In this document: one piece after another, positions 1-62,663 of the stretch | Numbering within the stretch: position 1 is the stretch's first letter | Layout of the letters: every line of letters begins with the position of its first letter | Virus record (IMG/VR): IMGVR_UViG_3300045988_180880 | Span: 224,001 to 288,000 of that record | Source: a virus | DNA length: 64,000 bases | Strand: one strand, 5' to 3' | The notes under the pieces: model-generated | What the model was told of the DNA's origin: nothing | The model's input: only the letters and a program-made list of their open reading frames with translations | The model's database searches: none | Translations under genes and position numbers: made by a program

Positions 1-447
1 ACTGAAAAAATTTCTCAAGAATCCGAGGCGAGAAAAACGGCTGATCAAGATTTTAAGGAAAACTTGAATACTGAAACTCAAGAAAGAACTACCGAAGATA
101 TTGCTATAAGAGAATATATAGACTCTACAAAATCAGAGTTAAATGAAAAGATAGATAAACTTATTGGTTCAGGAGGAGAGACTGAAGGAGGATTAGCTGC
201 AGAAGTGGAAGCTAGAAAACAAGGAGATAAATATAACTTCGATCTCTTAAAATTTGCAATTCAGAGAGTAAATTCATCTGCTGGTTTTGAAGATCCTGAT
301 CCCGATGATGACAGTATTTATAGTAATTTCCCAGATCTTTCAGATACACATTACCTAAGAGGGCAGAGCAATTTAGTAGGATGTCTTAAGGTTCTTGACC
401 AGAAAATTTATGAACTAGAACAAGCATTAACCATTAAAACACTCTAA
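1..447 (+). CDS. tail-fibre-like protein, C-terminal part (5' end outside window)
   Basis: The frame of the listed 64..447 ORF stays open back to nt 1. Repeated E-x-EARK-x-[AG]D-x-x-F units and coiled-coil-like composition resemble fibre shafts. Inference only. Confidence 0.5.
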   Translation, partial: TEKISQESEARKTADQDFKENLNTETQERTTEDIAIREYIDSTKSELNEKIDKLIGSGGETEGGLAAEVEARKQGDKYNFDLLKFAIQRVNSSAGFEDPDPDDDSIYSNFPDLSDTHYLRGQSNLVGCLKVLDQKIYELEQALTIKTL

Positions 448-450
448 TAT

Positions 451-663
451 ATGGCATTAACTAATTTTTATAAAGGACCTGAAGCTGAATATTCTAGAGA
501 GAAACATATTAATGGTATCTATATGAGCACTGATTCTAGAAAGCTTTGGATATTCGGACAACCAACACAAGAATTATCAGATATTATAGAAAAAACTGAT
601 TATGATGCTCTTGAATCTAAAGATCCGAATTTAATATATATCGTAAAATTATCAGAAGAATGA
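451..663 (+). CDS. hypothetical protein
   Basis: 70-aa ORF, 3 nt after the upstream stop, with an ATGA overlap into the next gene. Confidence 0.55.
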   Translation: MALTNFYKGPEAEYSREKHINGIYMSTDSRKLWIFGQPTQELSDIIEKTDYDALESKDPNLIYIVKLSEE

Positions 664-974
664 AAAAATTAATTCTAACCCTGATCACTACTCTATTAAT
701 TATTTCTTGTGGTACTACTCGAAAATTTAATACTACTTTTTATGAAGGCTTTTCGATAGAACCACAAAGAATAGTAGATAGTATAACTACAGCAAATTTA
801 CTTCCAGCGTCTATAGAATATCAAGAATGGCCTAAGTTGATGTACTTTACTAGTGATTCAGTTATAACTACACAGTATACGACTATAACCACTAAAGAAG
901 ATACGACTTATATATTCTCGATAACTGAATCCGCTGGAGATAGTATATACTTAATTAAATTTAGAAAAGAATAA
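660..974 (+). CDS. lipoprotein
   Basis: N-terminal MKKLILTLITTLLIISC gives a signal peptide plus lipobox Cys. Confidence 0.7.
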   Translation: MKKLILTLITTLLIISCGTTRKFNTTFYEGFSIEPQRIVDSITTANLLPASIEYQEWPKLMYFTSDSVITTQYTTITTKEDTTYIFSITESAGDSIYLIKFRKE

Positions 975-979
975 TAGTT

Positions 980-1285
980 ATGGATTTTGTATCAGTATTT
1001 TCAACATTAGCTGCTTTAGTGGCTGGTGTTCCTGTTGTTACACAGGCAATTAAGAAACTTATAGGTAAAGAACTTCCAGGGTGGGCTAATCAATTAATTT
1101 CTTGGATAGTTGCCATTGGATTATGTATGTTCGGTTGGTTTTTCGATCTTGGATGTCTTGCTGAAGCTTCTTGGTGGCAATCTCTCATAGTAGGCGCTGG
1201 TGTTGGATTAGCTAGTAACGGTGTATTTGATATCGCTCTAGTTCAGGGAATACTTGAACTTATATTCGGAAAAATAAAAAAGTAA
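980..1285 (+). CDS. holin-like small membrane protein
   Basis: 101 aa with about three hydrophobic segments and a basic C-terminus, 2 nt upstream of a peptidase gene. Call rests on position and topology only. Confidence 0.45.
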   Translation: MDFVSVFSTLAALVAGVPVVTQAIKKLIGKELPGWANQLISWIVAIGLCMFGWFFDLGCLAEASWWQSLIVGAGVGLASNGVFDIALVQGILELIFGKIKK

Positions 1286-1287
1286 TT

Positions 1288-1869
1288 ATGAGATCTTACG
1301 GTTATATTAAAACAGAAAACCTAGAAAGTTACTCAGAATATAAACCACAACCTATCACACTTCCGGCCGAATATAAACTCAAAGATATCGGCAAAGTGTG
1401 GGATCAAGGTAGTGTCGGAAGCTGTGTTAGTCATTCAATAGCAGAAATGTATAATTTTTATCAGCTAAGTCATGGAAAAACTCTAGAGAAAAAGCCTGAT
1501 TGGTTATACTATCTTAGAGCTGATAAAACAATAGATGGAATGATGCCTGCTGAAGGTTTCGAGTTAATGAAAACGGCCGGAGAAATAAAAATCTTCTCAA
1601 GAATATCAACTATCGAAGGAATTAAACATGCAGTAATAACAAATGGACCTGCACTTATAGCTGTTATTGTAAGAAACGGAGAACGTGATGATTTCTGGAA
1701 TGGTTCTGAAAACTTAGGAGGACATGCGATAAGTATTGTTGGTTTCTCTAGAGATGGATTTATGATAAAAAATTCTTGGGGTTATGGATATGCAGAGTCC
1801 GGTTTTTCTGAGATGAGCTATGAAGATGCTGGAAAAGTAATTCGAGAAGCTTGGACTATAATAGAATAA
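1288..1869 (+). CDS. papain-family (C1) cysteine peptidase, candidate lysis enzyme
   Basis: Catalytic motifs QGSVGSC (Cys), GGHAISIVGF (His) and IKNSWG (Asn-Ser-Trp-Gly). Confidence 0.8.
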   Translation: MRSYGYIKTENLESYSEYKPQPITLPAEYKLKDIGKVWDQGSVGSCVSHSIAEMYNFYQLSHGKTLEKKPDWLYYLRADKTIDGMMPAEGFELMKTAGEIKIFSRISTIEGIKHAVITNGPALIAVIVRNGERDDFWNGSENLGGHAISIVGFSRDGFMIKNSWGYGYAESGFSEMSYEDAGKVIREAWTIIE

Positions 1870-1872
1870 AAA

Positions 1873-1920
1873 AAGAGACTAGTAAAGGGTTTAATTTTCC
1901 CAATACTAGTCTTTTATTTT
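1873..1920. terminator. bidirectional hairpin terminator between convergent genes
   Basis: AAGAGACTAGTA (1873-1884) pairs with TACTAGTCTTTT (1905-1916), with an A-run before and a T-run after. Confidence 0.7.
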
Positions 1921-1922
1921 CT

Positions 1923-2603
1923 TTATATCCTCTCTATAAATACCTCATAATCATCTTTACAATACCAACTTGGACATGTATGAGGATTTCCATGTCTATT
2001 TCCTTTTCCTCGGTTTATATAACTTTTCCATCTATATATTGTATCAGATTTCTTAAGAGCTTTCCACCAAACATCAAGTGTCGTTTTTATCCATGAACCT
2101 TTCTCGGCTATTATGTCTGATGGATTAACTAAAGGTTTATTATTATCGTAGTCTCTCAAGTGATGCCAAATATAAGGTCCAGTATATACAAATTTCTTCG
2201 GCCTTGGAGAATATACGGCGATGAATTTTTGGTCGTCAGAATAATCATCATCTCCTGTGTAACAAAAATCTACTTGAATCTCTTTTATCCCGACCCTCCT
2301 TAGTATCGCCGTTTTTTCATCAGGCCGTAAATTATAATACTCATCTCTTATTATCTTTTTCCCAGTCAAATCTCTAAGATAAAAGAATCTACCATTACCT
2401 TCTTTCCCAGGGATCATATCTTTAGGAGACTTACCTAATAAAAAAGTTTCAATATAACCTTTGGGAAATGCATAAAATCCCTTCCTAACTGGAGCTGTAT
2501 GAAATCCTCGAAAAGGTGAATCCCCAGGGAGTGATCCCTCTTTATGATCCTGTGGAGATAAAGTACCCCACCTAAAAAATTCATAACTATTCCTCTTTTT
2601 CAT
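1923..2603 (-). CDS. hypothetical protein
   Basis: 226-aa ORF with no recognisable motif. Confidence 0.6.
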   Translation of the reverse strand: MKKRNSYEFFRWGTLSPQDHKEGSLPGDSPFRGFHTAPVRKGFYAFPKGYIETFLLGKSPKDMIPGKEGNGRFFYLRDLTGKKIIRDEYYNLRPDEKTAILRRVGIKEIQVDFCYTGDDDYSDDQKFIAVYSPRPKKFVYTGPYIWHHLRDYDNNKPLVNPSDIIAEKGSWIKTTLDVWWKALKKSDTIYRWKSYINRGKGNRHGNPHTCPSWYCKDDYEVFIERI

Positions 2604-2910
2604 AAACTCTATTTTTAAAAGTTACAGCCGAAAATCTCTTCTTTACTACTTTTAAGACTTTTTTCTCCAAAGATCGATACTCATTAGAAGAATAATCACG
2701 TTTTAATTCAATATATTCCCAAGGCTCGTCATAAATAAATTCCCAATCAGATGTGCACTTAATTAATTCAGCTGTCCATGGATCTGAATGTCTCCACCTA
2801 AGATAAATACAATAACCTTGAGATGAAATCGGATCAAGAAAATAATAATAACATTGACTTGGACACCATATTAAATCCTCTATCCAATAACCTAATAATT
2901 GTTCGTTCAT
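2587..2910 (-). CDS. hypothetical protein
   Basis: 107-aa ORF overlapping the downstream gene by 17 nt. Promoter-like motif lies upstream. Confidence 0.6.
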   Translation of the reverse strand: MNEQLLGYWIEDLIWCPSQCYYYFLDPISSQGYCIYLRWRHSDPWTAELIKCTSDWEFIYDEPWEYIELKRDYSSNEYRSLEKKVLKVVKKRFSAVTFKNRVYEKEE

Positions 2911-2934
2911 ATATAATATACTGTTTTTTCATTA

Positions 2935-2949
2935 ACATATATAAGGAAA
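2935..2949 (-). promoter_or_regulatory. recurrent promoter-like motif (TTTCCTTATATATGT on the - strand)
   Basis: Member of the CYTTAWWRATGTA family, found 20-35 nt upstream of many start codons in this window. Confidence 0.45.
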
Positions 2950-2969
2950 TAAACGTTCCTTTAAATCAG
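2945..2969 (+). repeat. cassette-junction site 1 (GGAAATAAACGTTCCTTTAAATCAG)
   Basis: Perfect 25-nt inverted copy at 3614-3638. The 15-nt core TAAACGTTCCTTTAA is also present at 7628-7648 and 8315-8335. Confidence 0.9.
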
Positions 2970-3272
2970 GATGGTAGTCACAGAACTGTACAAATATCTT
3001 TAACTCCAGTATCTGCTTCAGATTGGATATTATCCGGAAATGTTAATGGAATCTTATTCACTATAAATTCTCCCGAAATATCTACCTCTGTAGATTTATC
3101 AAACACTATACCAAAGGAAATTAATGTACGTGTAATTGCAACCTATTCTTACAGAAGTAATTCTGGTGGGATAGGTAAATGGATGGTAGGTTCTGCTGAG
3201 TCAAATAGTGTATCATTTTCTCAAGGGGAAACAGGAAGTAAAACGATTTCAGTTATTGGAAGACCTTATTAA
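2949..3272 (+). CDS. start-codon-less cassette ORF A (107 codons, begins I-N-V-P-L-N-Q)
   Basis: Open frame from the junction site to TAA at 3270-3272. The only upstream ATG (2823) lies antisense inside gene 2587..2910. Composition is beta-rich. Confidence 0.45.
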   Translation: MNVPLNQDGSHRTVQISLTPVSASDWILSGNVNGILFTINSPEISTSVDLSNTIPKEINVRVIATYSYRSNSGGIGKWMVGSAESNSVSFSQGETGSKTISVIGRPY

Positions 3273-3289
3273 ATTAATTTCCTTCTATT

Positions 3290-3634
3290 CTATAATACTT
3301 TTTCAGTTCTAATATTAATTGTTGTTTCTTTATCTTTAAATATTGTAAAAGTACTATTAATATTTGTAATAATATATTTATTAGGACTTTCTACTGATCC
3401 TCCATCTATTATTCTATAAGTTCCAACTCTTAATGTATGGGTACTAGAGTAACTAGAAGAACCCTCTTCATTAGTGATTGGTGTAGTAATTTCAGATTGT
3501 ATGCCATCATCTTCATTTTTTATAATAATAAATAGATGAATGTATTCTTCTATATCTATATTAAACCATTTCCAGTCTATATTTAAAGTTCCTAAATTTA
3601 AAATCTTACCACTCTGATTTAAAGGAACGTTTAT
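3290..3634 (-). CDS. start-codon-less cassette ORF B (114 codons, begins I-N-V-P-L-N-Q)
   Basis: Manual translation finds no in-frame ATG, GTG or TTG anywhere. An in-frame TGA (3643-3641) lies three codons upstream of the motif. Stop TAG at 3292-3290. Confidence 0.45.
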   Translation of the reverse strand: MNVPLNQSGKILNLGTLNIDWKWFNIDIEEYIHLFIIIKNEDDGIQSEITTPITNEEGSSSYSSTHTLRVGTYRIIDGGSVESPNKYIITNINSTFTIFKDKETTINIRTEKVL

Positions 3635-3638
3635 TTCC
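3614..3638 (-). repeat. cassette-junction site 2 (inverted copy of site 1)
   Basis: 25/25 reverse-complement identity with 2945-2969. Confidence 0.9.
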
Positions 3639-3644
3639 GATCAA

Positions 3645-3660
3645 TTCCTTATTAATGTAT
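3645..3660 (+). promoter_or_regulatory. promoter-like motif TTCCTTATTAATGTAT
   Basis: Lies 25 nt upstream of the ATG at 3685. Same motif family as elsewhere in the window. Confidence 0.45.
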
Positions 3661-3684
3661 ATTAAAATTAAATAAATTAATCAT

Positions 3685-4413
3685 ATGAAGACAGGAATTG
3701 AAACATTAATTTCAGAGGTTGGAAAAAGAATTACTAACAAAACCCAAGTAGAAGGAGGAATTATTTCTGGTTTAGGAATAAATAAAACTAATGGAAAAGA
3801 ATACGTTATTATAAGCGTTTGTGGATCATCGAACATGACGAAAGATCAACTTAATGATCTTTGCGATATTAAAATTATTACTGAAAAACTTATTACAGAG
3901 ACATTCGATTCTAATGGAATTCCAATGTTTTCTTATTGTACAATAGACGAATTCTTTAATTATTGGAATATCGTTAATGATGAAGAAATTAAAAGTTCGA
4001 TAAATTTAACTTTTAAAGAAGCAAAAGAATTATTTTCCTCAACAATATCTTGGGATATAAAAGAGAAGATCTTAAAAATTTATTCAAGAAGACAACTTGA
4101 AGGTCTTCCAGAAAAAATAGAATATCCAAAAGTACCACAAGATTATCCAGCTGAAAAATTTAGAGATAGTGCTAGAGCTTTTAAGGAACTAATTTGGTTA
4201 GTTAAAGAATATACCAAAGCATCAGCTCTTCAAGAACCTAACTGGAATGATTACTCACAAAATAAATTTGCTATTGTGAGATGTGGTGAAGCAGTAATGA
4301 TTTCGAAAGAAAAAACTTTCTTTCCAATAGCCTTTCTCTCTAAAGAAGTTGCTCAAGTATTCTTAGAAGATCATAAAGAGTTATTAGAAGAATATTATAT
4401 GATTGGAAAATGA
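3685..4413 (+). CDS. hypothetical protein
   Basis: 242-aa ORF. Confidence 0.65.
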   Translation: MKTGIETLISEVGKRITNKTQVEGGIISGLGINKTNGKEYVIISVCGSSNMTKDQLNDLCDIKIITEKLITETFDSNGIPMFSYCTIDEFFNYWNIVNDEEIKSSINLTFKEAKELFSSTISWDIKEKILKIYSRRQLEGLPEKIEYPKVPQDYPAEKFRDSARAFKELIWLVKEYTKASALQEPNWNDYSQNKFAIVRCGEAVMISKEKTFFPIAFLSKEVAQVFLEDHKELLEEYYMIGK

Positions 4414-4625
4414 AAAAATTATTGATTATCCTAATTTTAATATTAGTTTCCAGTTGTGAAGTAGATCTAGAAGAGTATTCTGGATGGATTATTAAAGAAA
4501 AACGTCGAGAACCTTTAGGACTTAATTTTATTATTAGTGATCCAAACAATAATAAAAATTGGAAAATTTTAATAGTTCAAAATTATACATATAAAAAATA
4601 TAATATTGGAGATACAATAAAATGA
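4410..4625 (+). CDS. small lipoprotein
   Basis: MKKLLIILILILVSSC gives a signal peptide plus lipobox. ATGA overlaps on both sides. Confidence 0.6.
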   Translation: MKKLLIILILILVSSCEVDLEEYSGWIIKEKRREPLGLNFIISDPNNNKNWKILIVQNYTYKKYNIGDTIK

Positions 4626-5467
4626 AAGAATTAAAAACAGCTTCCCTCTCAGAAATTCCAGAGAGATTAGAAAAATCATTAACTCCGGAAAATGGGTATT
4701 CACGAAAAACAAAGAATATCCTAGTAAGATATGCTAGATGGTCGTTAACTTATAATAAGATAATGATGAAGTCTGATACTAAGTATATAAATTTTGAATA
4801 TAGTGTTGTTGGAGTTTATCCGTATATTTATCTTATCCCAATTATTAAAGTATATAAGTTAGATCGAATAATTGGAAATAACCTAGTTTATTCAGTTATC
4901 GATACTATAAAAGATCCGAAAGTTTGTTTTGATATCCCGGCTCTTATAGAATTAGGAGAAAAGCATGGAGTAGAGTTTAGACAATATCGTGGAAAAGGTC
5001 CAAATAAAAAACCCATGGCGAGAGTAATGCTAAGAAAATTCACGGATATAGAGAGCTCGTATTTTTACCTTGAAGATTACATTTCAACAGATGATATAAT
5101 AATTGAAACTTTCGATGGACTTAAGAGCTCAGAACAACGTGATATATTCTTAGAACTAGGAACGCCATGTTTTTGTATGACGTTAGATTCTGAAACAAAA
5201 GAATGGATTTTTTCTCTTAATCCTACTATTGGATCCTTTCCTGAAGATATAAATTTTCAAGGATATCCAGATGATTGGTCAAACGAGGGAATAATTCAGA
5301 GATATCAAGAATTTTCCGAAGATCTTCAGAAACCACGTCAAAAAGTAACTCCAGAATCGGTAGCTGAAGAAAAACGATTGGAGATGGAGAGAAGAAAAGA
5401 ACAGAAACGTACTAAAAATAGGAATAATGATAGATCTAAGAAAATATGCAATATTTCCGGAAAGTAA
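4622..5467 (+). CDS. hypothetical protein with basic C-terminal tail
   Basis: 281-aa ORF with a K/R/E-rich C-terminus. Confidence 0.65.
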   Translation: MKELKTASLSEIPERLEKSLTPENGYSRKTKNILVRYARWSLTYNKIMMKSDTKYINFEYSVVGVYPYIYLIPIIKVYKLDRIIGNNLVYSVIDTIKDPKVCFDIPALIELGEKHGVEFRQYRGKGPNKKPMARVMLRKFTDIESSYFYLEDYISTDDIIIETFDGLKSSEQRDIFLELGTPCFCMTLDSETKEWIFSLNPTIGSFPEDINFQGYPDDWSNEGIIQRYQEFSEDLQKPRQKVTPESVAEEKRLEMERRKEQKRTKNRNNDRSKKICNISGK

Positions 5468-5609
5468 TAATTTTTTGGATAGTAGTACTCCAGGGTTAGA
5501 AGAATTAGAAAGATTTAATAAGATCATGGAAGAAACGCAGAAAAATTTGAATATAAAATCAGGATCAAGAAATGATATAATTTATGAAAAAGAAGCTGAC
5601 AAAAAATAA
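5427..5609 (+). CDS. possible small ORF (start uncertain)
   Basis: 60-aa ORF overlapping both neighbours. Weak support. Confidence 0.3.
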   Translation: MIDLRKYAIFPESNNFLDSSTPGLEELERFNKIMEETQKNLNIKSGSRNDIIYEKEADKK

Positions 5610-6123
5610 ATGGATAACTTCAAAAGGTGAGGAATTATCTTTAGAAGAAATGAACAGTTCTCATATATTAAATGCAATCAGAAAAATAAAATCTTCAACA
5701 GGATGGAGAGAAGATTGGCTTCCTATCTTAGAAGCAGAACTAACTAGAAGAAGTATGATAGCAAGAACAGATGATTATGAGAAAAAGATCATAACTGATG
5801 AGGAAAAAATGTATTTCTTATGTACTTCATGTGAATACCAAATGTTATCTGTTGAAGGTGGTAGTTTATCTGATATACTGAATATTACTATTAATGATCA
5901 AGTAAAAAGTTATATAAGAGATAATATTTTTTGTATACCTCTTGAACAATCTAAGGAAAATTTTATTTCGGAGATGGATAAATTAATAAGAAAAACTAGA
6001 AGTAATTCTAAAGAAGATGCTGAGAAATTTATGAGTTATTATGAAAAATATCTTCTAATTAATGTCTTTTCAAAAGAATGGAGTAATTTTATGAACTTAA
6101 TGTTAGGTCGTCATGGAAAGTAG
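5584..6123 (+). CDS. hypothetical protein
   Basis: 179-aa ORF. Confidence 0.6.
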   Translation: MKKKLTKNKWITSKGEELSLEEMNSSHILNAIRKIKSSTGWREDWLPILEAELTRRSMIARTDDYEKKIITDEEKMYFLCTSCEYQMLSVEGGSLSDILNITINDQVKSYIRDNIFCIPLEQSKENFISEMDKLIRKTRSNSKEDAEKFMSYYEKYLLINVFSKEWSNFMNLMLGRHGK

Positions 6124-6349
6124 AATCAAAGAATCAATTATTAAACACTTAGAGTATCAAAAAAGTATTGCTAAAGATCCCGAAGGACCGTTTATATGTT
6201 GTCCTATGCCTGGTAAAAATTCATGGACCATTTCTGAAATAATAGAGGAAGTAAGAAAAGAGACAGAATTTGGAGAGGAATTTGCAGATGATGTTATAGG
6301 ATTAGCTATTGATATTTTATGTCGAAAGAATCAATCAATGAATGGATAA
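6113..6349 (+). CDS. hypothetical protein
   Basis: 78-aa ORF in a tightly packed + strand array. Confidence 0.55.
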   Translation: MESRIKESIIKHLEYQKSIAKDPEGPFICCPMPGKNSWTISEIIEEVRKETEFGEEFADDVIGLAIDILCRKNQSMNG

Positions 6350-6534
6350 ACTCTCAAGAACTAACAACCGAAGATCTTGATTTTATGTGGGATTTTTGTA
6401 TAGTTTTCGGTCATCCTGTAATATCTAAACTTGGAATGGCTTCTTGGAAAGATTTACGTCCAGACTTAATTAAACAAATTCCGAACGAATATGAGAAGAT
6501 GGTAGAAAAAGTAATATATAATAATAAGGAATAA
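6319..6534 (+). CDS. hypothetical protein
   Basis: 71-aa ORF. Confidence 0.5.
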   Translation: MSKESINEWINSQELTTEDLDFMWDFCIVFGHPVISKLGMASWKDLRPDLIKQIPNEYEKMVEKVIYNNKE

Positions 6535-6992
6535 TGAAATTATTGAATTTAGAGGAATATTTAACTCCAGAAAGTATAAAAGTACATGATATTAATCAAT
6601 GGGATTCATTTTTATTTAACTTACTTGAAGAAGAAAATATATATCCACCTAAACTTACTGGACAATGGATAACAGATAAAAATAGATTTTATGAAAAGTT
6701 TGTATGTTTGAAAGAAGTAACTGAGAATACTTATTATCCTATGTATTGTAGACAATATAATCCAATTGAAATTACTATATATCATGAAAAGAATGGATTA
6801 TATGATTTTAAATGTATGTTAATAAGTATTGACGATACAGCTTTTGGGTTTGGATGGGAAAATTTAGAAAGACTTAGCATAGATAAATATGTTCTAGAAA
6901 TTATATCTTGGATTGATAAAGTAGATAAATTAGATCATGAAGAATTAATTAAATATGGACTTTCTTTAGGTGCAGAAGATTTAAGTTGGTAA
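6534..6992 (+). CDS. hypothetical protein
   Basis: 152-aa ORF. Confidence 0.6.
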   Translation: MKLLNLEEYLTPESIKVHDINQWDSFLFNLLEEENIYPPKLTGQWITDKNRFYEKFVCLKEVTENTYYPMYCRQYNPIEITIYHEKNGLYDFKCMLISIDDTAFGFGWENLERLSIDKYVLEIISWIDKVDKLDHEELIKYGLSLGAEDLSW

Positions 6993-7004
6993 TTAAATAT
7001 AAAC

Positions 7005-7118
7005 ATGAATGATTTTAAAATAAAAGATATAGTAAAAGGATTAATGATTTGTACTTTTATTTCAGGGTTTTTAATAGGTATCTTATCAGTTTTAATTTTA
7101 ATTTATTCAACAATATGA
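7005..7118 (+). CDS. small single-pass membrane protein (37 aa)
   Basis: ATG at 7005, hydrophobic core ICTFISGFLIGILSVLILIY, and an ATGA overlap with the next gene. Below the ORF-track size cutoff. Confidence 0.45.
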   Translation: MNDFKIKDIVKGLMICTFISGFLIGILSVLILIYSTI

Positions 7119-7576
7119 AGAAAGAATTATATGATGAGTATGTAAAAGCTTGGGATATTTGGAAGAAAAGAACTGATGAATATTTTCAAAAAAGAGTTGA
7201 AATAATTAAAGATAAAACTCTCTCCGAAGAATCTCAATCAAAACTTTTAGACACATTAGCAGAGAATTTTGATAGAAAAGGTTTTACAGAAGAATATTTT
7301 GGACCTTGGACGGAAATAAGAGATGTTACTGATCTATTAAATCCTGACTTCATTTTACCAGGAATAGGCAAGAATTATTCAGAACTTCAAATAGCGAAAG
7401 ATGATGTTCCAGGAAATTGGGGTAAGATTGCTAGAGATTGTTATGATCCTAAAAGATATGGAAAAATAATTGGACTTGGATATGATTCCGGAGATTATTA
7501 TCTTATTATAGAAAACCCTGATACTGGAGAAGAATCAACAATCTTAATGAATACTAAGTATACTATTGATTCATAA
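7115..7576 (+). CDS. hypothetical protein
   Basis: The listed 7049 start is a TTG. The ATG at 7115 (MKKELYDEY...) is coupled to the upstream small ORF and is more likely. Confidence 0.6.
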   Translation: MKKELYDEYVKAWDIWKKRTDEYFQKRVEIIKDKTLSEESQSKLLDTLAENFDRKGFTEEYFGPWTEIRDVTDLLNPDFILPGIGKNYSELQIAKDDVPGNWGKIARDCYDPKRYGKIIGLGYDSGDYYLIIENPDTGEESTILMNTKYTIDS

Positions 7577-7584
7577 AAGAATAT

Positions 7585-7619
7585 AAGACTAGGATTTTAT
7601 TTTCCTAGTCTTATTTTTC
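7585..7619 (+). terminator. rho-independent terminator
   Basis: AAGACTAGGA (7585-7594) pairs with TCCTAGTCTT (7603-7612), followed by a T-run. Confidence 0.75.
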
Positions 7620-7627
7620 TCTTACCA

Positions 7628-7648
7628 TTAAACGTTCCTTTAAGTCAA
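7628..7648 (+). repeat. cassette-junction site 3 (TTAAACGTTCCTTTAAGTCAA)
   Basis: Shares the 15-nt core with sites 1, 2 and 4. Inverted partner at 8315-8335 differs at one position. Confidence 0.85.
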
Positions 7649-7963
7649 TATGCAAAAGCTGTTTATGTTAATCTCATTGTTACTTGGAGTGGAGATCCAA
7701 GTAGACCTTATGGAGCACACTTTACTTTAACTAGTAATGGTTTTGTACACGGTTTTCAAGAAATATCTAGTTCCGGTGTTCTTCCAGGAGATACAGAAAC
7801 TTTCTCAATACAAATAATAAATGATTATAATGTTTTTTCGTGGAGTTCTTCTGGTGTTTGGTATGCATATCACGATGATCTAAAACAAATACAATCTACA
7901 ATTAGTCCTAGTTCTGGAAATTTTAGCGCTAATAATGACATATACATAACTTTTAATACATAA
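7628..7963 (+). CDS. start-codon-less cassette ORF C (111 codons, begins L-N-V-P-L-S-Q)
   Basis: Manual translation finds no in-frame ATG, GTG or TTG. It starts 8 nt after a terminator and ends at TAA 7961-7963. Confidence 0.45.
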   Translation, partial: LNVPLSQYAKAVYVNLIVTWSGDPSRPYGAHFTLTSNGFVHGFQEISSSGVLPGDTETFSIQIINDYNVFSWSSSGVWYAYHDDLKQIQSTISPSSGNFSANNDIYITFNT

Positions 7964-7984
7964 AATTAAAGATAAAAATAATTT

Positions 7985-8335
7985 TTAATTGTTCTCTGGA
8001 AGTATTGGAAGACGAATATCTATATAAAAAACTTGTTCAGACTCTGAAAGAGTTATATTACTAGGAGTACATACTCCCAATTGACTATATAGACTTCCAG
8101 CCGAGTATAAAAATTCAAGATAATTTGATCCAAAAAATTCTGAATCTATTTTTTGAATTTTAGTATCCGTATATGCACTTCCCATTCCAGATCCTTTAAA
8201 TTCAAAAGAAGGTATTCCAACTTTTCTTAAAGTTAACATCCAATTAATTTGTCTTCCATTACTAGAAGAAGGTATATTTATTTTAAATGTCCAGTATTTA
8301 ATTCTTTCACCCTCTTGATTTAAAGGAACGTTTAA
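7985..8335 (-). CDS. start-codon-less cassette ORF D (116 codons, begins L-N-V-P-L-N-Q)
   Basis: The frame of the listed 7985..8239 ORF stays open 32 codons further up to the junction site. An in-frame TAA lies at 8365-8363. Confidence 0.45.
   Translation of the reverse strand, partial: LNVPLNQEGERIKYWTFKINIPSSSNGRQINWMLTLRKVGIPSFEFKGSGMGSAYTDTKIQKIDSEFFGSNYLEFLYSAGSLYSQLGVCTPSNITLSESEQVFYIDIRLPILPENN
8315..8335 (-). repeat. cassette-junction site 4
   Basis: The reverse complement reads TTAAACGTTCCTTTAAATCAA. Confidence 0.85.
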
Positions 8336-8341
8336 AGTAAA

Positions 8342-8378
8342 AGAAAAATAAGAGATAGGATTTTATTTCCTATCTCTT
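8342..8378 (-). terminator. rho-independent terminator of gene 8370..8876
   Basis: AAGAGATAGGA (8350-8360) pairs with TCCTATCTCTT (8368-8378), with a T-run on the - strand. Confidence 0.7.
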
Positions 8379-8876
8379 TTTCACACTCTCCGAAATAACC
8401 TCTTCTAATTCACCTTCTGTAATATAATCCATTAAAGTTTCTTCGAATTCTACATTTATCCAAGCTTGCAACATAGCTGTATTTTCAAAATCTTCATAAC
8501 TCAGATTTCTTAACTTAACTATCTGATCTACGGCATGTCTTGTTTCGTGATAAAATGTAGTTTTGATATTCTTAACCAAACTTTTATAATCCTTTTTGGC
8601 AATAAAAGGTCTATTTCTTCTAGAGTCAATGTTTACTATTACTACTACTTGATCGAATCCTGTTGTTTTATTAATAATTCTATAAGTAGATGTTCCGGAT
8701 GTTGAACTTATTGTTTCTATAAGTTCTTCTGCTCTTGAATTTTTCTTTACCGGAATTTCCATTTTATGATTCTTTACAAACTTAGTAGTAAACCACCTCG
8801 TCATTTCTTTCTGTGTTCCAATTCCAAAATTAATTTCTACTCTATAAGAATCATGTTTTAATTTACTTATTTTCAT
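8370..8876 (-). CDS. HExxH-motif protein (putative zinc metallopeptidase)
   Basis: FYHETRHAVD motif, 168 aa. Confidence 0.5.
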   Translation of the reverse strand: MKISKLKHDSYRVEINFGIGTQKEMTRWFTTKFVKNHKMEIPVKKNSRAEELIETISSTSGTSTYRIINKTTGFDQVVVIVNIDSRRNRPFIAKKDYKSLVKNIKTTFYHETRHAVDQIVKLRNLSYEDFENTAMLQAWINVEFEETLMDYITEGELEEVISESVKKR

Positions 8877-16208: not shown

Positions 16209-16435
16209 AAAAACGATGGGTTTGAAAAGACGTTAAATTCTTATATATGAGAAAATAAATTCTTTAAGATCAAAATTCATACACAAATACAACTATACAA
16301 AAACAAAGAAAATAATGAATTTTGATCATTAATTTTTCGCCGTTAAAAATCGAATGGTTTAGAAAACGGTAAAAGCCTTATAAGAGATAAGATAACAAAA
16401 ATATTAACAAATTATTTTTCTAAAGAACAAGAATT

Positions 16436-25455: not shown

Positions 25456-25947
25456 TTAATCTAATCTTTCATCATTATATTTACTCTTTATTAGATTACC
25501 ATTAATATTATGCCATATAGTTTGATTAGAAGATCCTCTAAATCTAAGTTTTCTATCTTTTAATTCATCTATATATCTTCCATCAACTATATAATCACAC
25601 AAATTAATAACTTTCATTTGTTCTTCAGTTAATTCAGAAATATAAAATCCAGTCCATAACCAAATCTCTTTTTCTGGCCAAGTTTCCTTTATTTCTTTTA
25701 ATAATTCACTAAGTTCTGTAGCTTGAAGTAAAGGTTCTCCACCTAAAATAGAAACTCTCTTTACTCCTTCTATTAATTCAAAAAATTCTTTTTTTTCTTT
25801 CTCAGTAAATTCTTTTCCTCCATCCAAAGGCCAAGCTACTTGATTGAAACAATTCTTACAATGGAATAAACATCCTTGTAAAAATAATGAAACTCCAATG
25901 TAAGGTCCATTAGATATATCTATTTTTCTAATAGTTGCGTATCTCAT
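25456..25947 (-). CDS. nrdG: anaerobic ribonucleotide reductase activating protein
   Basis: Radical-SAM CLFHCKNC (CX3CX2C) motif. Lies immediately downstream of nrdD. Confidence 0.85.
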   Translation of the reverse strand: MRYATIRKIDISNGPYIGVSLFLQGCLFHCKNCFNQVAWPLDGGKEFTEKEKKEFFELIEGVKRVSILGGEPLLQATELSELLKEIKETWPEKEIWLWTGFYISELTEEQMKVINLCDYIVDGRYIDELKDRKLRFRGSSNQTIWHNINGNLIKSKYNDERLD

Positions 25948-25961
25948 AGTTTTCAGGGATT

Positions 25962-28900
25962 TTATAATTCATGATCATCTAGATGAGTGTATCTATCTCG
26001 TATCTCGGCTGTACGCCCTTGATTCCAAAAATTGGAACCAATATCAATAATTACTATATTATTTATATAGTTTAAGACTATATCTTTTAATAAAATTTTT
26101 ATTAATTATTATACTTAGTCGTTGAACAAGTTTATTTTTACTTGATGCCGATTTATATTAATATCTTTCCGGCAATTTTAATAATTTAACGTGAGCTAAA
26201 TTTAACCCACACGTACGTCTAGATACATGAAGTTTGTGTTGATCTTCACAGCCACATTGAGGACACCTCCAAGACAATTTATTATCCTCATCTATAATTT
26301 CTATCTCACCATCATATCCACAGTTAGAACAATAATCTGATTTTGTATTTAACTCTGCATAAGAAATATTATCATAGATGAACTTTATAACTTCTAAAAC
26401 TGCTTCGATGTTAGTACTGATATCTGCAGACTCTATGTAAGATATCATACCACCAGAACTATATGGTTGAAGTTCTGCCTCAAATTTTAACTTATCAAGA
26501 GGATTAATTTCTTCTTTTACATTAATATGATAACTGTTAGTAATATAAGATTCATCAGTTATGTTCGGTATAACTCCGAATCTATTCTTAAGACACTTTG
26601 CAAATTTATAAGTTGTACTTTCAATTGGAGATCCGTATACACTATATCCAAGACCATTCTCCTCAGATTTCCACTTATTACAAGCATCATTTAATCTTTG
26701 CATAATTTGTTTTGCAAGATCGATATGTTTTGTATGAGATTCCCCAGTTAATGCCATAACGCACTCATATAAACCAGCATAACCTAGAGAAATTGTACTA
26801 TACCCACCAAATAATAATGGATCAATCACTTCTCCTGGTTTTAATCTTGCAAAAGCTCCATGTTGCCATAATATAGGAGCTACATCTGATTTAATTCCAA
26901 GTAAACGTTTATGTCTAATTTGTAATGCTTTATGACATAATTCCAAACGTTCATCTAGAATTTCCCAGAACTTATCAATATCTCCTTCTGCAGATAATCC
27001 TGCATCAGGAAGTGATACTGTTACAACACCTTGATTTAGACGACCATAGAATTTATAATTTCCATTTTCATCTTTCCAAGGTGATAAGAAACTGCGACAT
27101 CCCCAAAGTTAATAATTATTAACTTTTAGACTATATCATATTCTTATTGCTATTACCACAAATAAGAACCCTACCATTTCAGAATTTATTATTAATAATA
27201 AATTCTTACGATACTCATTTCCATATTAGTATTTCTCTAATATTTATTTTCTCTAGTCGTTAGGCTTTTATATTAAATATAATAAATATCTTTTATTTTA
27301 TACTTACGAAAACCTTTATTTTTCTTTTGTAACCAGTACTTAACAGTTACTCTAGAAATTCCTAGTAATTTTGATAAGTCTTCTTTAAAATTATAAATTT
27401 CTTCAAGTCCATTATCATAAATTATCTTAAAAGGTTTATAATTTTTATGTTTAGATCCACCAACTTTATAAGAATGACGTTCGTTTTGTTTTCTAGTACA
27501 CCACTCTAAGTTATTTACATTACTATTTAATTTATTTCCATCGATATGATTAACTTCAAGATAATTATTTGGATTAGGTATGAATAATAAAGCTACTAAT
27601 CTATGTCTAAAGAATCTTTCCTTCTTTATAGAATTATTTTTATTATATAGATAAATTCTTGGATAACCTGCATTATTAGTATCTCCAATGATTAGTTTCT
27701 TTGTTATTTTATTTCTAACTTCTCCAAGTTCATTTATTTCATAATAATTTTCCCAATTAGGTATATCTTTCCACATAAAAATATTTTATATTTAATAATT
27801 TAGCACGGTAAGTTAGCAATTAATGCCTTCTCCGTTTAAGTAGGTTTTTCGAGTAACATCACTGTTACAAGGCACAGGATACTCTATGCTCGGGAAACAG
27901 TTTCCTTCTTTAAGTTCCTTCATTTTCTTTTCAGAAATATAATCAGGAACTAATCGTTTAGCTGAACACTTAGCAGCGAGTTTAGTAAGATACCAATATT
28001 TACTATTTTCATGTATATTATCTTCCTCAAGAGCATATATCAATTTAGGAAATGCAGGAGTTACAAATACTCCATCTTCATTAGGCATTCCTTGGATACG
28101 TTGTTCTAGGAATTCTTGAATTAACATGGCTAATTCTTCTTTATATTCTGAAGTTTCGCCTAGATACATAAATACTGTTAAAAATGGGGACTGCATTTCC
28201 CCCGAATTAGACTATATCATCAACCACTATTAAATGGTTGGAGAGCGCTTCGGAATAAGGAATTTCGCCTTAAACCTACTCCTTTCGGATAGTCGTTTGA
28301 CCTTCTAGAAACTTATTCATTTTCTAGCTTGGCACAGGATTAGATTTTAATCTTTCCCTGTTAGCAAAATTTTAAACTATCATTTCCTATAGTTCCGTAT
28401 TATTTACGTAAATTTTACACCTAAGATTTCTTAGTTCACTCTCTACATTGAAAAATATTACTACTTTCCCGGGCCAGTAAAATTCGACCATTTGTGTTTG
28501 TCATACTATTAATTTGATAATTAAAAGTTTGAACTGAGTCTTTAACTTCTTTTTTCAAATCAATAGTTGCTAATTTCTCGCTAAGTTCTTCATCTAATCC
28601 AGCATCTTTATATTTTTTCAGATAACCATTATAACTATCTCTTACAAAAGGTGCTAGATGTGTTAATGTTATTGTACATCCCAAATATATGAAATTTGTA
28701 TTTTTCATATAACTAGACTATTTCTTATTGAGTTTATGTTCTCAATCAACCCGTTTCAATAATTAGGAATTTCACCAAATTATTTACGTCAAAATGACTA
28801 GTCGTTACAATTAATAAATAAATTTAAATGTATGATCTGAACAATTAGTTTCTCCATTTATGTATCTACTTATTTGAGTTTCAGATTTACCCAAAAATTT

Positions 28901-30546
28901 CGCTAAGGCAACTATTGTTTTAAATTCATACTTATCATCTAGAATTATTTTTCTCCATTTACCTCTTTTAGTAAATGCTTTGGATTTTGCTTTCCCTTTT
29001 TTATAAGCTAATTTATTATTATCTCCCATAGACACCCACATAAGATTTGATGCTTTATTATTAGTTACATCATTATCAATATGCTCTATAGTATTTTTTT
29101 CCTCACTATGGCCATCCAGAAAAGCAAAACCAACTAACCTAGACACTTGAAGTCCTTTTTCCTTAATTTTAATATAAACTCTGCCAGTTTTCGAATTTAT
29201 ATTTAAAGATAATAGTACATACTTATCATATGTTTTTATATATCTTTTAACACGTCCCATATTTGAAATATAATAACTGGAGTATCCCAAAATCTCTTTC
29301 CATTCTTCATCAGGTAATTCTTCCCAATCATAATTTAATGAGGATTTTTCTACTAACTGATTTTTTCTTTCTTGAGCATTTATTTTCTGTCTATTAATAT
29401 AATCAATTTTGTGCTCATTTAATTCAGGAACTTTCTTTATTATATTACTCAAATATTCTGAGGTTACTTTTAATTCATTAGCTATTTCTGAAATTGAAAT
29501 ATCATTATCAAGTTTACTAATAATTAGATTTTTATTTTTATTAGCAAATTTTTGATTAGATGGTGTTAAGTAAGATACATTACCTTTTTCTAATTTCCAG
29601 TCTTCGTTGATAGCTTTTATTAAAGTTTTCCTATCTACTTCTAGTAATCTAGATATATAACTCTTAGATCTTCCTTCGTTACAATACAATTTAATAATTG
29701 TATTTTTTAATAATTCAATTTTTTCTCTTTCAGTCATTTCCAAACTTTTTTATTTATTAATCACGAGATCAGACTTTTCCATTCCTTCCTCGTTAGCCTT
29801 GATAAGCAAGACACCCACTTTTGTGGTTAGGGTTGTTTTAATACGGCAGATATATTTTATAAACCGTATTGACTGCTTGATACTGCAGTAATTATCTGCG
29901 TTGCAATTGTAGTAGCTGTAATTAATTTATGAGGTTTAAATATTTTTGTCTTATTTATACATGTTCCATTTTGAAGCATGTCCTCAAGATTAATCAAACA
30001 GCAATTATTCATCGCAAGTTGGCCTATATAGTCAAGATCGTGTATGTGAATCAGGCCTTCATCATGAGCTTGGATAATTTCAGGAGGGAATATTTTTCGT
30101 CTAGCCATATCTATACTAACAATTCCAGCCATATAGTCTCTCTGAACTGTTAAGAGCATAGAATCTTTATTAGAATTTTCAGACTTCCAATATTCACTAT
30201 CTCCTGCTAATAATTCATTTATTTGTTCATCGATAGTATTAGATTGTCGTTGAAATTCTCTAACACTTCGATATCCTTCATAAGCTTTTGCAGTTAACTT
30301 ATGTCCTTTCTTTATTAACTTGTCATATACTAAATTTTCAATCTCATCAATAGTACATGAACCTTTTTCTTTTAATTCTTCTTCAATTTCTTTAGAGATA
30401 TTAAAAGCTACTTTTGGACTTTTAATACCACTAGATTTCATTGCATTAAGAATTGCTTTTTCTATTTTTTCAGAATTAAATTTTTCAGATTTACCATTCC
30501 TTTTAGCAACTAGTAAATCTGATACTGTATTTACATCTTCACTCAT
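25962..30546 (-). CDS. nrdD: anaerobic ribonucleoside-triphosphate reductase, five exons
   Basis: Exons (complement) are 29863..30546, 28487..28681, 27886..28193, 26205..27103 and 25962..26044. Their sum is 2169 nt, or 723 codons. The junctions rebuild SSQYG-GCTITL, NTNG-QSPF, FPS-M-GCRSFL and the glycyl-radical motif RRTCG-Y-IG. Confidence 0.85.
26045..26204 (-). mobile_element. group I intron 4 of nrdD (ORF-less, 160 nt)
   Basis: 5' splice site after GUGGGU, paired to GCUCAC with a U-G wobble. P7-type elements are AACGACTAAG and ATATAGTCTT. The intron ends in TTG. Confidence 0.7.
27104..27885 (-). mobile_element. group I intron 3 of nrdD with HNH endonuclease ORF
   Basis: td-like core CTTAAACGGAG...CCGTGCTAAATT, CCTAACGACTA and GATATAGTCTAA. 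P1 is GCAU/GUGC. The intron ends in TTG. Confidence 0.8.
27273..27776 (-). CDS. intron-encoded HNH homing endonuclease
   Basis: NHIDGNKLNSNVNNLEWCTRKQN motif. Located inside intron 3. Confidence 0.8.
   Translation of the reverse strand: MWKDIPNWENYYEINELGEVRNKITKKLIIGDTNNAGYPRIYLYNKNNSIKKERFFRHRLVALLFIPNPNNYLEVNHIDGNKLNSNVNNLEWCTRKQNERHSYKVGGSKHKNYKPFKIIYDNGLEEIYNFKEDLSKLLGISRVTVKYWLQKKNKGFRKYKIKDIYYI
28194..28486 (-). mobile_element. group I intron 2 of nrdD (ORF-less, 293 nt)
   Basis: Core CTAACAGGG...CCTGTGCCAAG, AACGACTATCCGAAAGGAGTAGG and GATATAGTCTAAT. The intron ends in ATG just before the exon codon CAG. Confidence 0.8.
28682..29862 (-). mobile_element. group I intron 1 of nrdD with HNH endonuclease ORF
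   Basis: P1 is UACGGU/GCCGUA with a U-G wobble at the splice site. P7 elements are TAACGACTAG and AATAGTCTAG. The intron ends in TTG. Confidence 0.8.
28811..29743 (-). CDS. intron-encoded HNH-type homing endonuclease with N-terminal HTH modules
   Basis: IEHIDNDVTNNKASNLMWV motif. Located inside intron 1. Confidence 0.75.
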   Translation of the reverse strand: MEMTEREKIELLKNTIIKLYCNEGRSKSYISRLLEVDRKTLIKAINEDWKLEKGNVSYLTPSNQKFANKNKNLIISKLDNDISISEIANELKVTSEYLSNIIKKVPELNEHKIDYINRQKINAQERKNQLVEKSSLNYDWEELPDEEWKEILGYSSYYISNMGRVKRYIKTYDKYVLLSLNINSKTGRVYIKIKEKGLQVSRLVGFAFLDGHSEEKNTIEHIDNDVTNNKASNLMWVSMGDNNKLAYKKGKAKSKAFTKRGKWRKIILDDKYEFKTIVALAKFLGKSETQISRYINGETNCSDHTFKFIY

Positions 30547-38746: not shown

Positions 38747-38996
38747 TGAACTTTACCTGTTTACCTCGAGAAGATTATACTTTTCGATCTTGATACTCTG
38801 GAAATTGTTACAGTGATCAATTAATTTATACTCATAATTATAATTAGAAGTAACTAATAACATAAGCCAGTTATATCCAAATAAAATTCAATTATTTATT
38901 ATTATATTAATAAGTAGTCTCCGATCAGTACCATATTTTCATCTGATCTTTACTACATATATAAGAATTTGAAGGTTTCTGAGGTATCTTATTTTT

Positions 38997-41639: not shown

Positions 41640-41718
41640 AACTTTTAAGTTTTTTTATTGTTTACACCTATAAGGAATTCAATGGTTCTTAAGATTCTTA
41701 TATATGATAATAAAATAA

Positions 41719-62360: not shown

Positions 62361-62537
62361 AATCATATATAAGGCTTTGAAGTGATAAAAATAATACTGT
62401 CTTATTTTCACAAACTGTACTGCCTTTTACGACAAATAATAATAATAAAATTACCTTACATAGGTAATTAGTATAAGTTCCAAGTTTTATTGTAGTAAAA
62501 AACTTATACTGATTTATTCTACTACATACCTTAATGA

Positions 62538-62625: not shown

Positions 62626-62663
62626 TTAACATATATAAGGCTTTGAAGTCTTATTAAAAATGT

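Follow-up and report, generated by a model that had tools for sequence, protein, structure and literature searches.

The DNA analysed here, referred to below as the window, is a stretch of 64,000 nucleotides that covers positions 224,001 to 288,000 of the IMG/VR virus record IMGVR_UViG_3300045988_180880. Two segments in its left part, A (2945-3638) and B (7615-8348), together hold four copies of the 15-base sequence TAAACGTTCCTTTAA, each of which opens a reading frame without a start codon of its own. In what follows these copies are treated as putative crossover sites and the reading frames as cassettes, which comparison with related phages suggests are shuffled by inversion.

Layout of the sites and cassettes

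The core TAAACGTTCCTTTAA occurs exactly four times in the window, in the order +,-,+,-. No further copy appears in the 64 kb when up to two mismatches are allowed, shuffled sequences giving 0.62 matches on average. An earlier inspection of the letters alone (the sequence-only reading) had described four sites in this alternating orientation and no other copy, and the exact copies at 2950, 3619, 7629 and 8320 bear it out, even at the relaxed threshold. It had overlooked, however, the start-less ORF (open reading frame) that begins NVPL at every site, the terminator hairpins that bracket segment B and the divergent genes at segment A. Every site in the window is the in-frame 5' end of an ORF that has neither ATG nor GTG nor TTG as its start. 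The four encoded proteins, of 106, 113, 110 and 115 amino acids (aa), share the N-terminus (I/L)NVPL(N/S)Q, and beyond it they are just 24-32% identical to one another. Two such ORFs lie tail-to-tail in each segment of about 0.7 kb. Segment A is flanked by two divergent genes, both of its flanks being promoter-side, and segment B by two convergent genes, just beyond both of their terminator hairpins, both of its flanks being terminator-side. The features are as follows.

2950..2964, + strand: site 1, putative crossover core, with the region 5' of the divergent gene 2587-2910 as its left flank (type F0)
2952..3272, + strand: cassette 1, start-less 106-aa ORF (NVPLNQDGSHRTVQ...), predicted all-beta, in a putatively silent position
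3290..3631, - strand: cassette 2, start-less 113-aa ORF (NVPLNQSGKILNLG...), convergent with cassette 1
3619..3633, - strand: site 2, putative crossover core, with the region 5' of the 4-kb block as its flank (type F3)
3685..7576, + strand: the 4-kb block of nine ORFs, bounded by the outward-facing sites 2 and 3
7583..7614, + strand: terminator hairpin of gene 7049-7576, which is the flank of site 3
7629..7643, + strand: site 3, putative crossover core; homology boundary with the related loci L229 and L030
7631..7963, + strand: cassette 3, start-less 110-aa ORF (NVPLSQYAKAVYVN...), putatively silent in this position
7985..8332, - strand: cassette 4, start-less 115-aa ORF (NVPLNQEGERIKYW...), convergent with cassette 3
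8320..8334, - strand: site 4, putative crossover core; homology boundary with the related loci L229 and L018
8350..8378, - strand: terminator hairpin of gene 8370-8876, which is the flank of site 4 (type F2)

As arranged in the window, the four cassette ORFs offer no start codon at which their translation could begin, and cassette 2 is preceded by an in-frame TGA three codons 5' of its site. The nine ORFs of the 4-kb block received no Pfam or PHROG assignment. The terminator-side flanks share about 20 nt (CTYTTATTTTTCTYTTACTT) beside the core, seen at 7615-7628 and 8335-8348 of the window and at 2563-2607 and 7471-7515 of the related locus L049, and comparison of the window with L049 shows that the final five of these bases (accat or tactt) have changed places between flank types. 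The swap may reflect a second, homology-driven exchange, or else a flank-side recombinase arm that is longer in flanks of the terminator type.

Rearrangements bounded by the sites

Close relatives of the window differ from it by rearrangements that end at the sites. In L034 (99% identical to the window) and L049 (96-97%), the left arm of the window (1-2993) is inverted and lies on the opposite side of the 4-kb block; homology stops at sites 1, 2 and 3, site 1 being a breakpoint of the inversion and site 2 a homology boundary with respect to both loci. The block itself is 96-99% identical in both and is inverted relative to the left arm of the window; it appears to move and invert as one unit. 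A third locus, L229 (98-99% identical), matches the window as far as site 3 and resumes the match at site 4, with 15.7 kb between these points in place of segment B. The sequence-only reading had proposed that the four copies are recombinase crossover sites and that recombination could invert the segments as well as the intervening block; the site-bounded rearrangements in these three loci, the inverted block in two of them and the re-assortment of cassettes and flanks described below all support it.

These rearrangements also bear on an alternative raised at the same time, that the 15-mer is a cleavage or homing target of an HNH endonuclease encoded in the window, which would drive one-way replacement of cassettes. 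Although the window does hold at least three HNH/NUMOD4 ORFs, none lies in or beside any segment, cassette pairs move intact, and the rearrangements, being reciprocal inversions, preserve the two junctions as well as the two gene blocks. We therefore consider the homing explanation highly improbable.

A wider survey of junctions covered 366 sites in 119 loci among the matches listed, and distinguished 54 flank types and 70 cassette types. Within it, 241 of 247 adjacent site pairs alternate in orientation, and cassette types seen at least three times occur with a mean of 7.4 flank types as against only 1.4 types of tail-to-tail partner. Many flanks and few partners per cassette are what inversion predicts, since no site lies between the two cassettes of a pair. 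Among the loci collected first, one cassette was seen with up to six flanks and one flank with up to 12 cassettes. As for the elements of the window itself, flank F0 is paired with six different cassettes in relatives, flank F3 occurs with five, and terminator-type flanks of the F2 class have 12 different ones; cassette 3 has six different flanks in relatives, including an 82-aa constant module in L021, and cassettes 3 and 4 remain paired in L030 and L050, where their flanks differ. Comparison of related phages, which the sequence-only reading had recommended, thus finds that cassette content varies while the core is kept, in relatives that were themselves found with the core. The same reading had taken the higher identity within pairs of sites (25/25 for sites 1 and 2, 20/21 for sites 3 and 4) as a sign that each pair co-evolves. 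The figures are correct, but the explanation fails, because identity follows the class of flank (promoter-side at A, terminator-side at B) and the same flanks pair differently in relatives.

Traces of rearrangement are also seen in metagenome assemblies, where 31 of 106 complete-contig ends lie within 60 nt of a core, and where two assemblies contain alternative junctions within a sample, with the same cassette on two different flanks. In the L034 contig, at 107 (-), 3564 (+) and 8346-8413, duplication and deletion are both seen: one cassette (DGIV(V)IGTYNVSFDD) is present three times, the copies being found on the long constant gene described below, on a short module and as a 23-codon remnant; the same contig has a 53-nt 'empty' segment between two sites. 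Sites in inverted orientation, start-less in-frame 3' cassettes and site-bounded rearrangements are all present, and on the strength of these sequence comparisons the arrangement appears to be a programmed multiple-inversion system of the shufflon type.

Cassettes as exchangeable C-terminal domains

The 64-kb window contains no gene whose constant 5' part runs up to a site. In relatives, constant genes ending at the core are found in L025 (703-3612), in L034 and in L229 (5937-8717 and 10001-10555), and a constant part is present in the further relatives P0002, P0009, P0010 and P0022. The long constant protein is of about 745-770 aa, is rich in Ser and Thr and gives fn3_6 and weak BACON matches; in L025, L034 and L229 it has 744-751 aa, ends ...SSNI or ...SSL just before NVPL and then runs into the cassette. 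For the 82-aa module (MEHNLLLMGG...PSPSNI), fusions with at least six different cassettes were seen, including one with cassette 3 of the window in L021; a third flank type has ATG-AAA directly before the core, which produces an MKI mini-leader joined to NVPL (L050, P0015). All of these constant parts, the fn3/BACON protein, the 82-aa module and the mini-leader, end ...N-I/L right before the core. In P0002 a homologue of cassette 1 forms a fusion with a constant module, and in P0015 a homologue has been called with an MKI leader. The distant P0022 encodes a 581-aa BACON-repeat protein whose C-terminus is a homologue of cassette 3 (48% identical), the ...KNI of the former being joined directly to the NVPLEQ of the latter.

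Across the family, the cassettes are beta-rich C-terminal domains of about 100-225 aa that start NVPLxQ and have neither promoter nor start codon. The AlphaFold2 model of cassette 1 (pLDDT 71) is a generic beta-sandwich of seven strands, for which comparison with PDB folds returned no significant match (best E 0.018, TM-score <=0.49), so that no specificity can be inferred from it. Since some flanks are the 3' ends of real genes in relatives, the cassettes would be exchangeable C-terminal domains of a repeat-rich surface protein; and since the constant parts are found in relatives and not in the window, all four cassettes of the window look like silent spares. From its domain types and the tail-fibre genes nearby, we infer that the fn3/BACON protein is a receptor- or glycan-binding adhesin.

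The finding that the core joins two coding parts also disposes of most of the appeal of another early alternative, in which the 15-mer would be a translation-initiation or RNA-processing signal of four independent small genes. It is true that the ORFs begin exactly at the motif and that one flank type places an ATG two codons 5' of it, as in the MKI leader. In relatives, however, the motif is an internal in-frame junction of proteins of 184-969 aa; in the window, all four copies are without a start codon, a stop lies three codons 5' of cassette 2, segment B is downstream of terminators on both sides, and there is no credible match to Rfam. A signal of this kind is scarcely credible on such evidence.

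Core layout and the point of exchange

The sequence-only reading had parsed the core as 5-bp arms around an asymmetric 6-bp spacer. A dyad around the centre is indeed present, but it is better described as 6-bp arms round a 2-bp centre TT. Bases that differ between sites point to where exchange would occur. Variant cores with TAACTG, TAATTG, TATATG or TAAATG, which differ at positions 3-5, are tied to particular flanks, each of them occurring with many cassettes, whereas variants at position 10 (TTCT, TTCG), at position 15 (TTTAG) and at the base after the core are tied to cassettes across flanks. An entropy analysis of 342 junctions, for which the site filter demanded GTTC at positions 6-9, gives the same division: flank type accounts almost fully for the differences at positions -6 to 5 (conditional entropy <=0.11 bit), while for those at positions 10 to +6 cassette type is a better predictor than flank type. 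As positions 3-5 go with the flank and positions from 10 onward with the cassette, exchange would take place within G6-T7-T8-C9. This stretch appears to contain the centre TT of the dyad TAAACG-TT-CCTTTA, although, with GTTC fixed by the site filter, the mapping resolves four bases and not two. Positions 1, 2 and 11-14, among which are the silent third positions of the Pro and Leu codons, are invariant in the 342 sites; the third position of the Val codon falls within positions 6-9, which the search filter held fixed.

Such fine mapping is relevant to the possibility that no dedicated recombinase is involved, the core being the coding sequence of an NVPLNQ linker and the cassettes being shuffled by short-homology recombination or gene conversion through general functions of phage or host. 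Several observations speak for it: no recombinase gene was found in the DNA searched, the window encodes an SbcC-like protein, the triple cassette and the deleted segment of L034 are impossible by inversion alone, and the terminator-type flanks share their bases next to the core with the last 5 nt swapped between window and L049. Nevertheless, linkage switches within 4 bp despite some 10-20 nt of further identity on the cassette side, positions 10, 15 and +1 mostly stay with the cassette, and general recombination would explain neither the invariant bases of the core, silent third positions included, nor the alternation of adjacent sites, nor the near-identity to an invertase target that is described in the next section. 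This mode of shuffling is, in our view, unlikely.

The markers at positions 5 and 10 separate freely, TAATTG flanks being found with both TTCC and TTCT cassettes, and this leaves only 4 bp for exchange, which is too short for the 6-8-bp overlap of the tyrosine type. It is therefore difficult to see here an R64-type shufflon in which a phage-encoded Rci-like tyrosine recombinase would act on the layout TTAAA-CGTTCC-TTTAA with a 6-bp overlap region. That model does share with the present system its design, multiple inversions with alternative C-termini, and would suit sites that are asymmetric, with only the core and the cassette-side arm conserved and the flank-side arm variable. The sfx sites of R64 have a similar asymmetry. 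The enzyme might also be encoded in the remaining genome, outside the DNA searched. However, the core is identical at 14-15 of 15 bases to the target of a serine invertase (Mpi), and no tyrosine recombinase was detected in the window or family loci, yet the same search found such genes in L033 and L044. We regard a tyrosine-type shufflon as quite unlikely.

Match to inverton repeats of Bacteroidales

The promoter repeat controlled by Mpi in Bacteroides fragilis is ARACGTTCGTN, and the inverted repeat of a capsule-promoter inverton in B. intestinalis is GTTCGTTTAA (PMC8375218). In our genome collection, pairs of TA(A/G)ACGTTCGTTTAA about 190 bp apart were found in Bacteroides gallinarum, where TAGACGTTCGTTTAA and TAAACGTTCGTTTAA lie 189 bp apart directly 5' of a NusG/UpxY-like gene, and in a metagenome-assembled genome (MAG) of Tannerellaceae, where a perfect repeat pair lies 186 bp apart 5' of a SusC-like gene. 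The genomic examples of the host-type inverted repeat are L158 and L137; the scan returned mostly chance matches, L137, L158 and L111 being the informative ones among the matches listed. Set against the host capsule-inverton repeat, the phage core shares 14 of 15 bases; in L064 and L094, variant phage cores share all 15. Furthermore, the host-type site TAAACGTTCGTTTA (TAAACG-TT-CGTTTA) is a perfect dyad, the centre of which coincides with the mapped stretch of exchange. Given this near-identity, the most likely catalyst is an Mpi-family serine invertase acting in trans, either supplied by the host or encoded by the phage far from the sites. In a Lutibacter MAG (L111, 4717-5396), a 218-aa serine recombinase with a weak Mpi-family NCBIfam match (48.8 bits) has TAAACGTTCGTTTAA 9 nt (8 intervening bases) 5' of its start codon, which appears to provide another link of TAAACGTTCGTTTAA to serine recombinases in Bacteroidota.

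The sequence-only reading had recommended looking for a recombinase or invertase gene elsewhere in the genome. The search covered the 64-kb window, 19 IMG/VR family loci, L229 and 105 metagenome loci, and neither the window nor the related DNA, about 0.9 Mb with redundancy, yielded one, whereas the same searches did detect recombinase genes in unrelated loci, with tyrosine recombinases in L033 and L044. The window and the family loci searched gave no Hin-like ORF either, and a Hin/gamma-delta alignment used as an IMG/VR locus query returned only Hin-like enterobacterial prophages. Two candidates were rejected. ORF 6113-6349 of the 4-kb block matched a Lutibacter serine recombinase with 10 bits over 32 aa, which is spurious, and it had no NCBIfam match; a plasmid recombinase of B. 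fragilis (L420) scored 59 bits as an Mpi-family member against a cut-off of 272. Within the literature searched, no paper on Mpi-type sites in a phage was found, ACGTTCGT returned primer sequences only, and the Mpi consensus as a literal string gave no match.

Phage family and probable host

Scanning IMG/VR with the 15-mer recovered relatives whose loci hold 3-5 sites each, the contigs being 126-375 kb long; a 186-kb ENA contig has 10 sites within 20.5 kb in strict alternation, and a scan of human-gut metagenomes gave at least 105 loci with the core. In related contigs from IMG/VR and human-gut metagenomes, the core is present 3-10 times per locus in alternating orientation, and the family, with contigs of 186 to 375 kb, seems to consist of large human-gut phages with about 10 sites per genome. 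The window has 29% GC and four tRNAs, and its genes include those for CobS/CobT, an SbcC-like protein, NrdD/NrdG, PhoH, sigma-factor-like proteins and several HNH endonucleases. Neither megablast with the region nor tblastn with the constant protein and CobT turned up a close phage in GenBank, the best CobT match being 32% to a Bacteroides phage. The gut origin, the BACON-like repeats and this CobT match suggest that the host is probably a member of the Bacteroidales.

Tail-fibre-like genes lie directly to the left of the window, the left end of which was seen only on contigs of up to 6.6 kb. Window positions 64-1285 and contigs L230-L232 have a weak Phage_tail_C match, a Peptidase_S74 chaperone-domain protein and a 567-aa protein. 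With tail-fibre-like proteins at and outside the left end of the window, the shufflon region would adjoin the tail-fibre module.

A probable dispersed multiple-inversion system

We think it likely that the locus belongs to a dispersed, shufflon-like multiple-inversion system that swaps adhesin tips in large gut phages, probably through an invertase of the Mpi family. In such a system, the DNA from a + site to the next - site would carry two tail-to-tail cassettes, promoterless and start-less, and the DNA from a - site to the next + site would carry blocks of ordinary genes, such as the 4-kb block of the window and, in relatives, blocks with DNA polymerase, TerD and others. Inversion between any two oppositely oriented sites, with strand exchange within core positions 6-9 (G-T-T-C), would place a different cassette behind the constant part and thereby change the adhesin or fibre tip, and the cassettes away from constant parts would be silent spares.

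Several points weigh against this interpretation. The conserved left arm is only about 6 bp long, far below the 12-bp half-sites of Hin-family sites. Most phage cores have C, not G, at position 10, which breaks the host dyad and makes codon 3 Pro (CCT) instead of Arg (CGT). No recognisable recombinase gene, serine or tyrosine, is present in the window or the family loci. The heterogeneity seen within samples could also come from co-existing strains, and the evidence for the host is indirect. Finally, the cassette duplication and the deleted segment in L034 mean that inversion is not the sole process at work.

A more far-reaching possibility, which we put forward tentatively and with some doubt, is that the phage has no invertase of its own, that host Mpi targets stand at about 10 of its gene boundaries, and that the capsule enzyme of the host, which through the flipping of capsule promoters governs susceptibility to phages, reshuffles the adhesin tips during infection. 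The receptor-binding diversity of the phage would then be generated by, and coupled to, the phase-variation machinery of the host, and the system may exemplify a virus that exploits a host site-specific recombinase for its own antigenic variation. Capsule phase variation by Mpi-type invertases is the main known means by which gut Bacteroidales escape phages (PMC8375218), and adhesin shuffling at sites resembling those of capsule invertons would, if true, be a direct counter to capsule-based escape. The dispersed arrangement would also imply that a phage genome tolerates programmed inversion of blocks with DNA polymerase and other core genes, and site-based inversion would explain why assemblies of these abundant gut phages fragment at the sites. 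The roughly 70 interchangeable binding-domain cassettes of about 100 aa, with their defined junction, would form a ready-made library.

Comparison with known inversion systems

The capsule-promoter invertons of Mpi resemble the phage system in the sequence of their sites, TA(A/G)ACGTTCGTTTAA in the host as against TAAACGTTCCTTTAA in the phage, with TAAACGTTCGTTTAA in variant phage copies, and in having many genome-scattered sites that are served in trans. Mpi targets have no adjacent recombinase gene according to Coyne et al. 2003 as cited in PMC8375218, and the phage sites are likewise without one. The differences are that host invertons flip promoters of about 190 bp on and off, whereas inversions in the phage would swap 3' coding cassettes and flip gene blocks of several kilobases, and that most phage sites have C10 where host sites of the Mpi type have G10.

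In the Gin/G system of Mu, the Cin/C system of P1 and the Min system of p15B, as here, inversion selects alternative tail-fibre C-termini, and the crossover sites lie within coding sequence at the junction of constant and variable parts. The p15B system reportedly has six crossover sites and several cassettes (Sandmeier, Iida and Arber). These systems are compact (3-4 kb), with an adjacent invertase gene and 26-bp sites made of 12-bp half-sites; the phage family, in contrast to such Hin-type systems, has about 10 sites over more than 20 kb, essential genes between them and only 6-bp arms conserved. It also has two or three expression sites, and its sites are found at both promoter-side and terminator-side gene boundaries.

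The R64/IncI shufflon (pilV) likewise combines one constant N-terminal part with several C-terminal cassettes, and has convergent cassette pairs and asymmetric sites. Its Rci is a tyrosine recombinase encoded beside a contiguous shufflon, and the sfx sequence is unrelated to the phage core. In the phage family, by contrast, segments are separated by 3-4 kb of gene block, no tyrosine recombinase was found in the loci searched, and exchange maps to 4 bp.

A further parallel is a BV01-like phage of Phocaeicola, in which multi-cassette inversion diversifies a carbohydrate-binding tail-fibre tip and has been proposed, in a 2026 preprint, to counter capsule phase variation (PMC13596623). Both would be phages of Bacteroidaceae with an inversion-diversified fibre tip. 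In BV01, which is temperate, a single 1.7-kb locus holds three cassettes, the motif (TGGGAGAACT) is 10 bp long and the recombinase lies adjacent (PMC13596623), whereas the family described here has dispersed sites with an Mpi-like core and no adjacent recombinase, large genomes, and no integrase in the parts read. Viruses were not among the genomes scanned in a systematic survey of gene-altering inversions (PMC9881135).

Other features of the window

The near-palindromic sequence CATATATAAG is enriched in the window (30 matches at up to one mismatch, against 14.6 +/- 3.7 in shuffles), with copies for example at 2936-2945, 16240-16249, 38956-38965, 41697-41706, 62364-62373 and 62630-62639. Copies sit a few tens of bases 5' of tRNA-Glu and of start codons, for instance 13 nt from 41719 and 26 nt from 2910, and many sites have one in their promoter-side flank. 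The sequence is a candidate promoter element of the phage.

The nrdD gene, for the anaerobic ribonucleotide reductase, lies in pieces on the - strand between 25456 and 30546, where four NRDD-matching ORFs were counted. The piece at 29857-30546 holds the ATP-cone and NRDD positions 1-104, and that at 26158-26946 holds NRDD positions 309-541 and the glycyl-radical domain. HNH/NUMOD4 endonuclease ORFs (28811-29743 and 27273-27776) lie between the pieces, and an nrdG-like activase follows at 25456-25947. The splitting of nrdD is probably due to insertions of introns or homing endonucleases.

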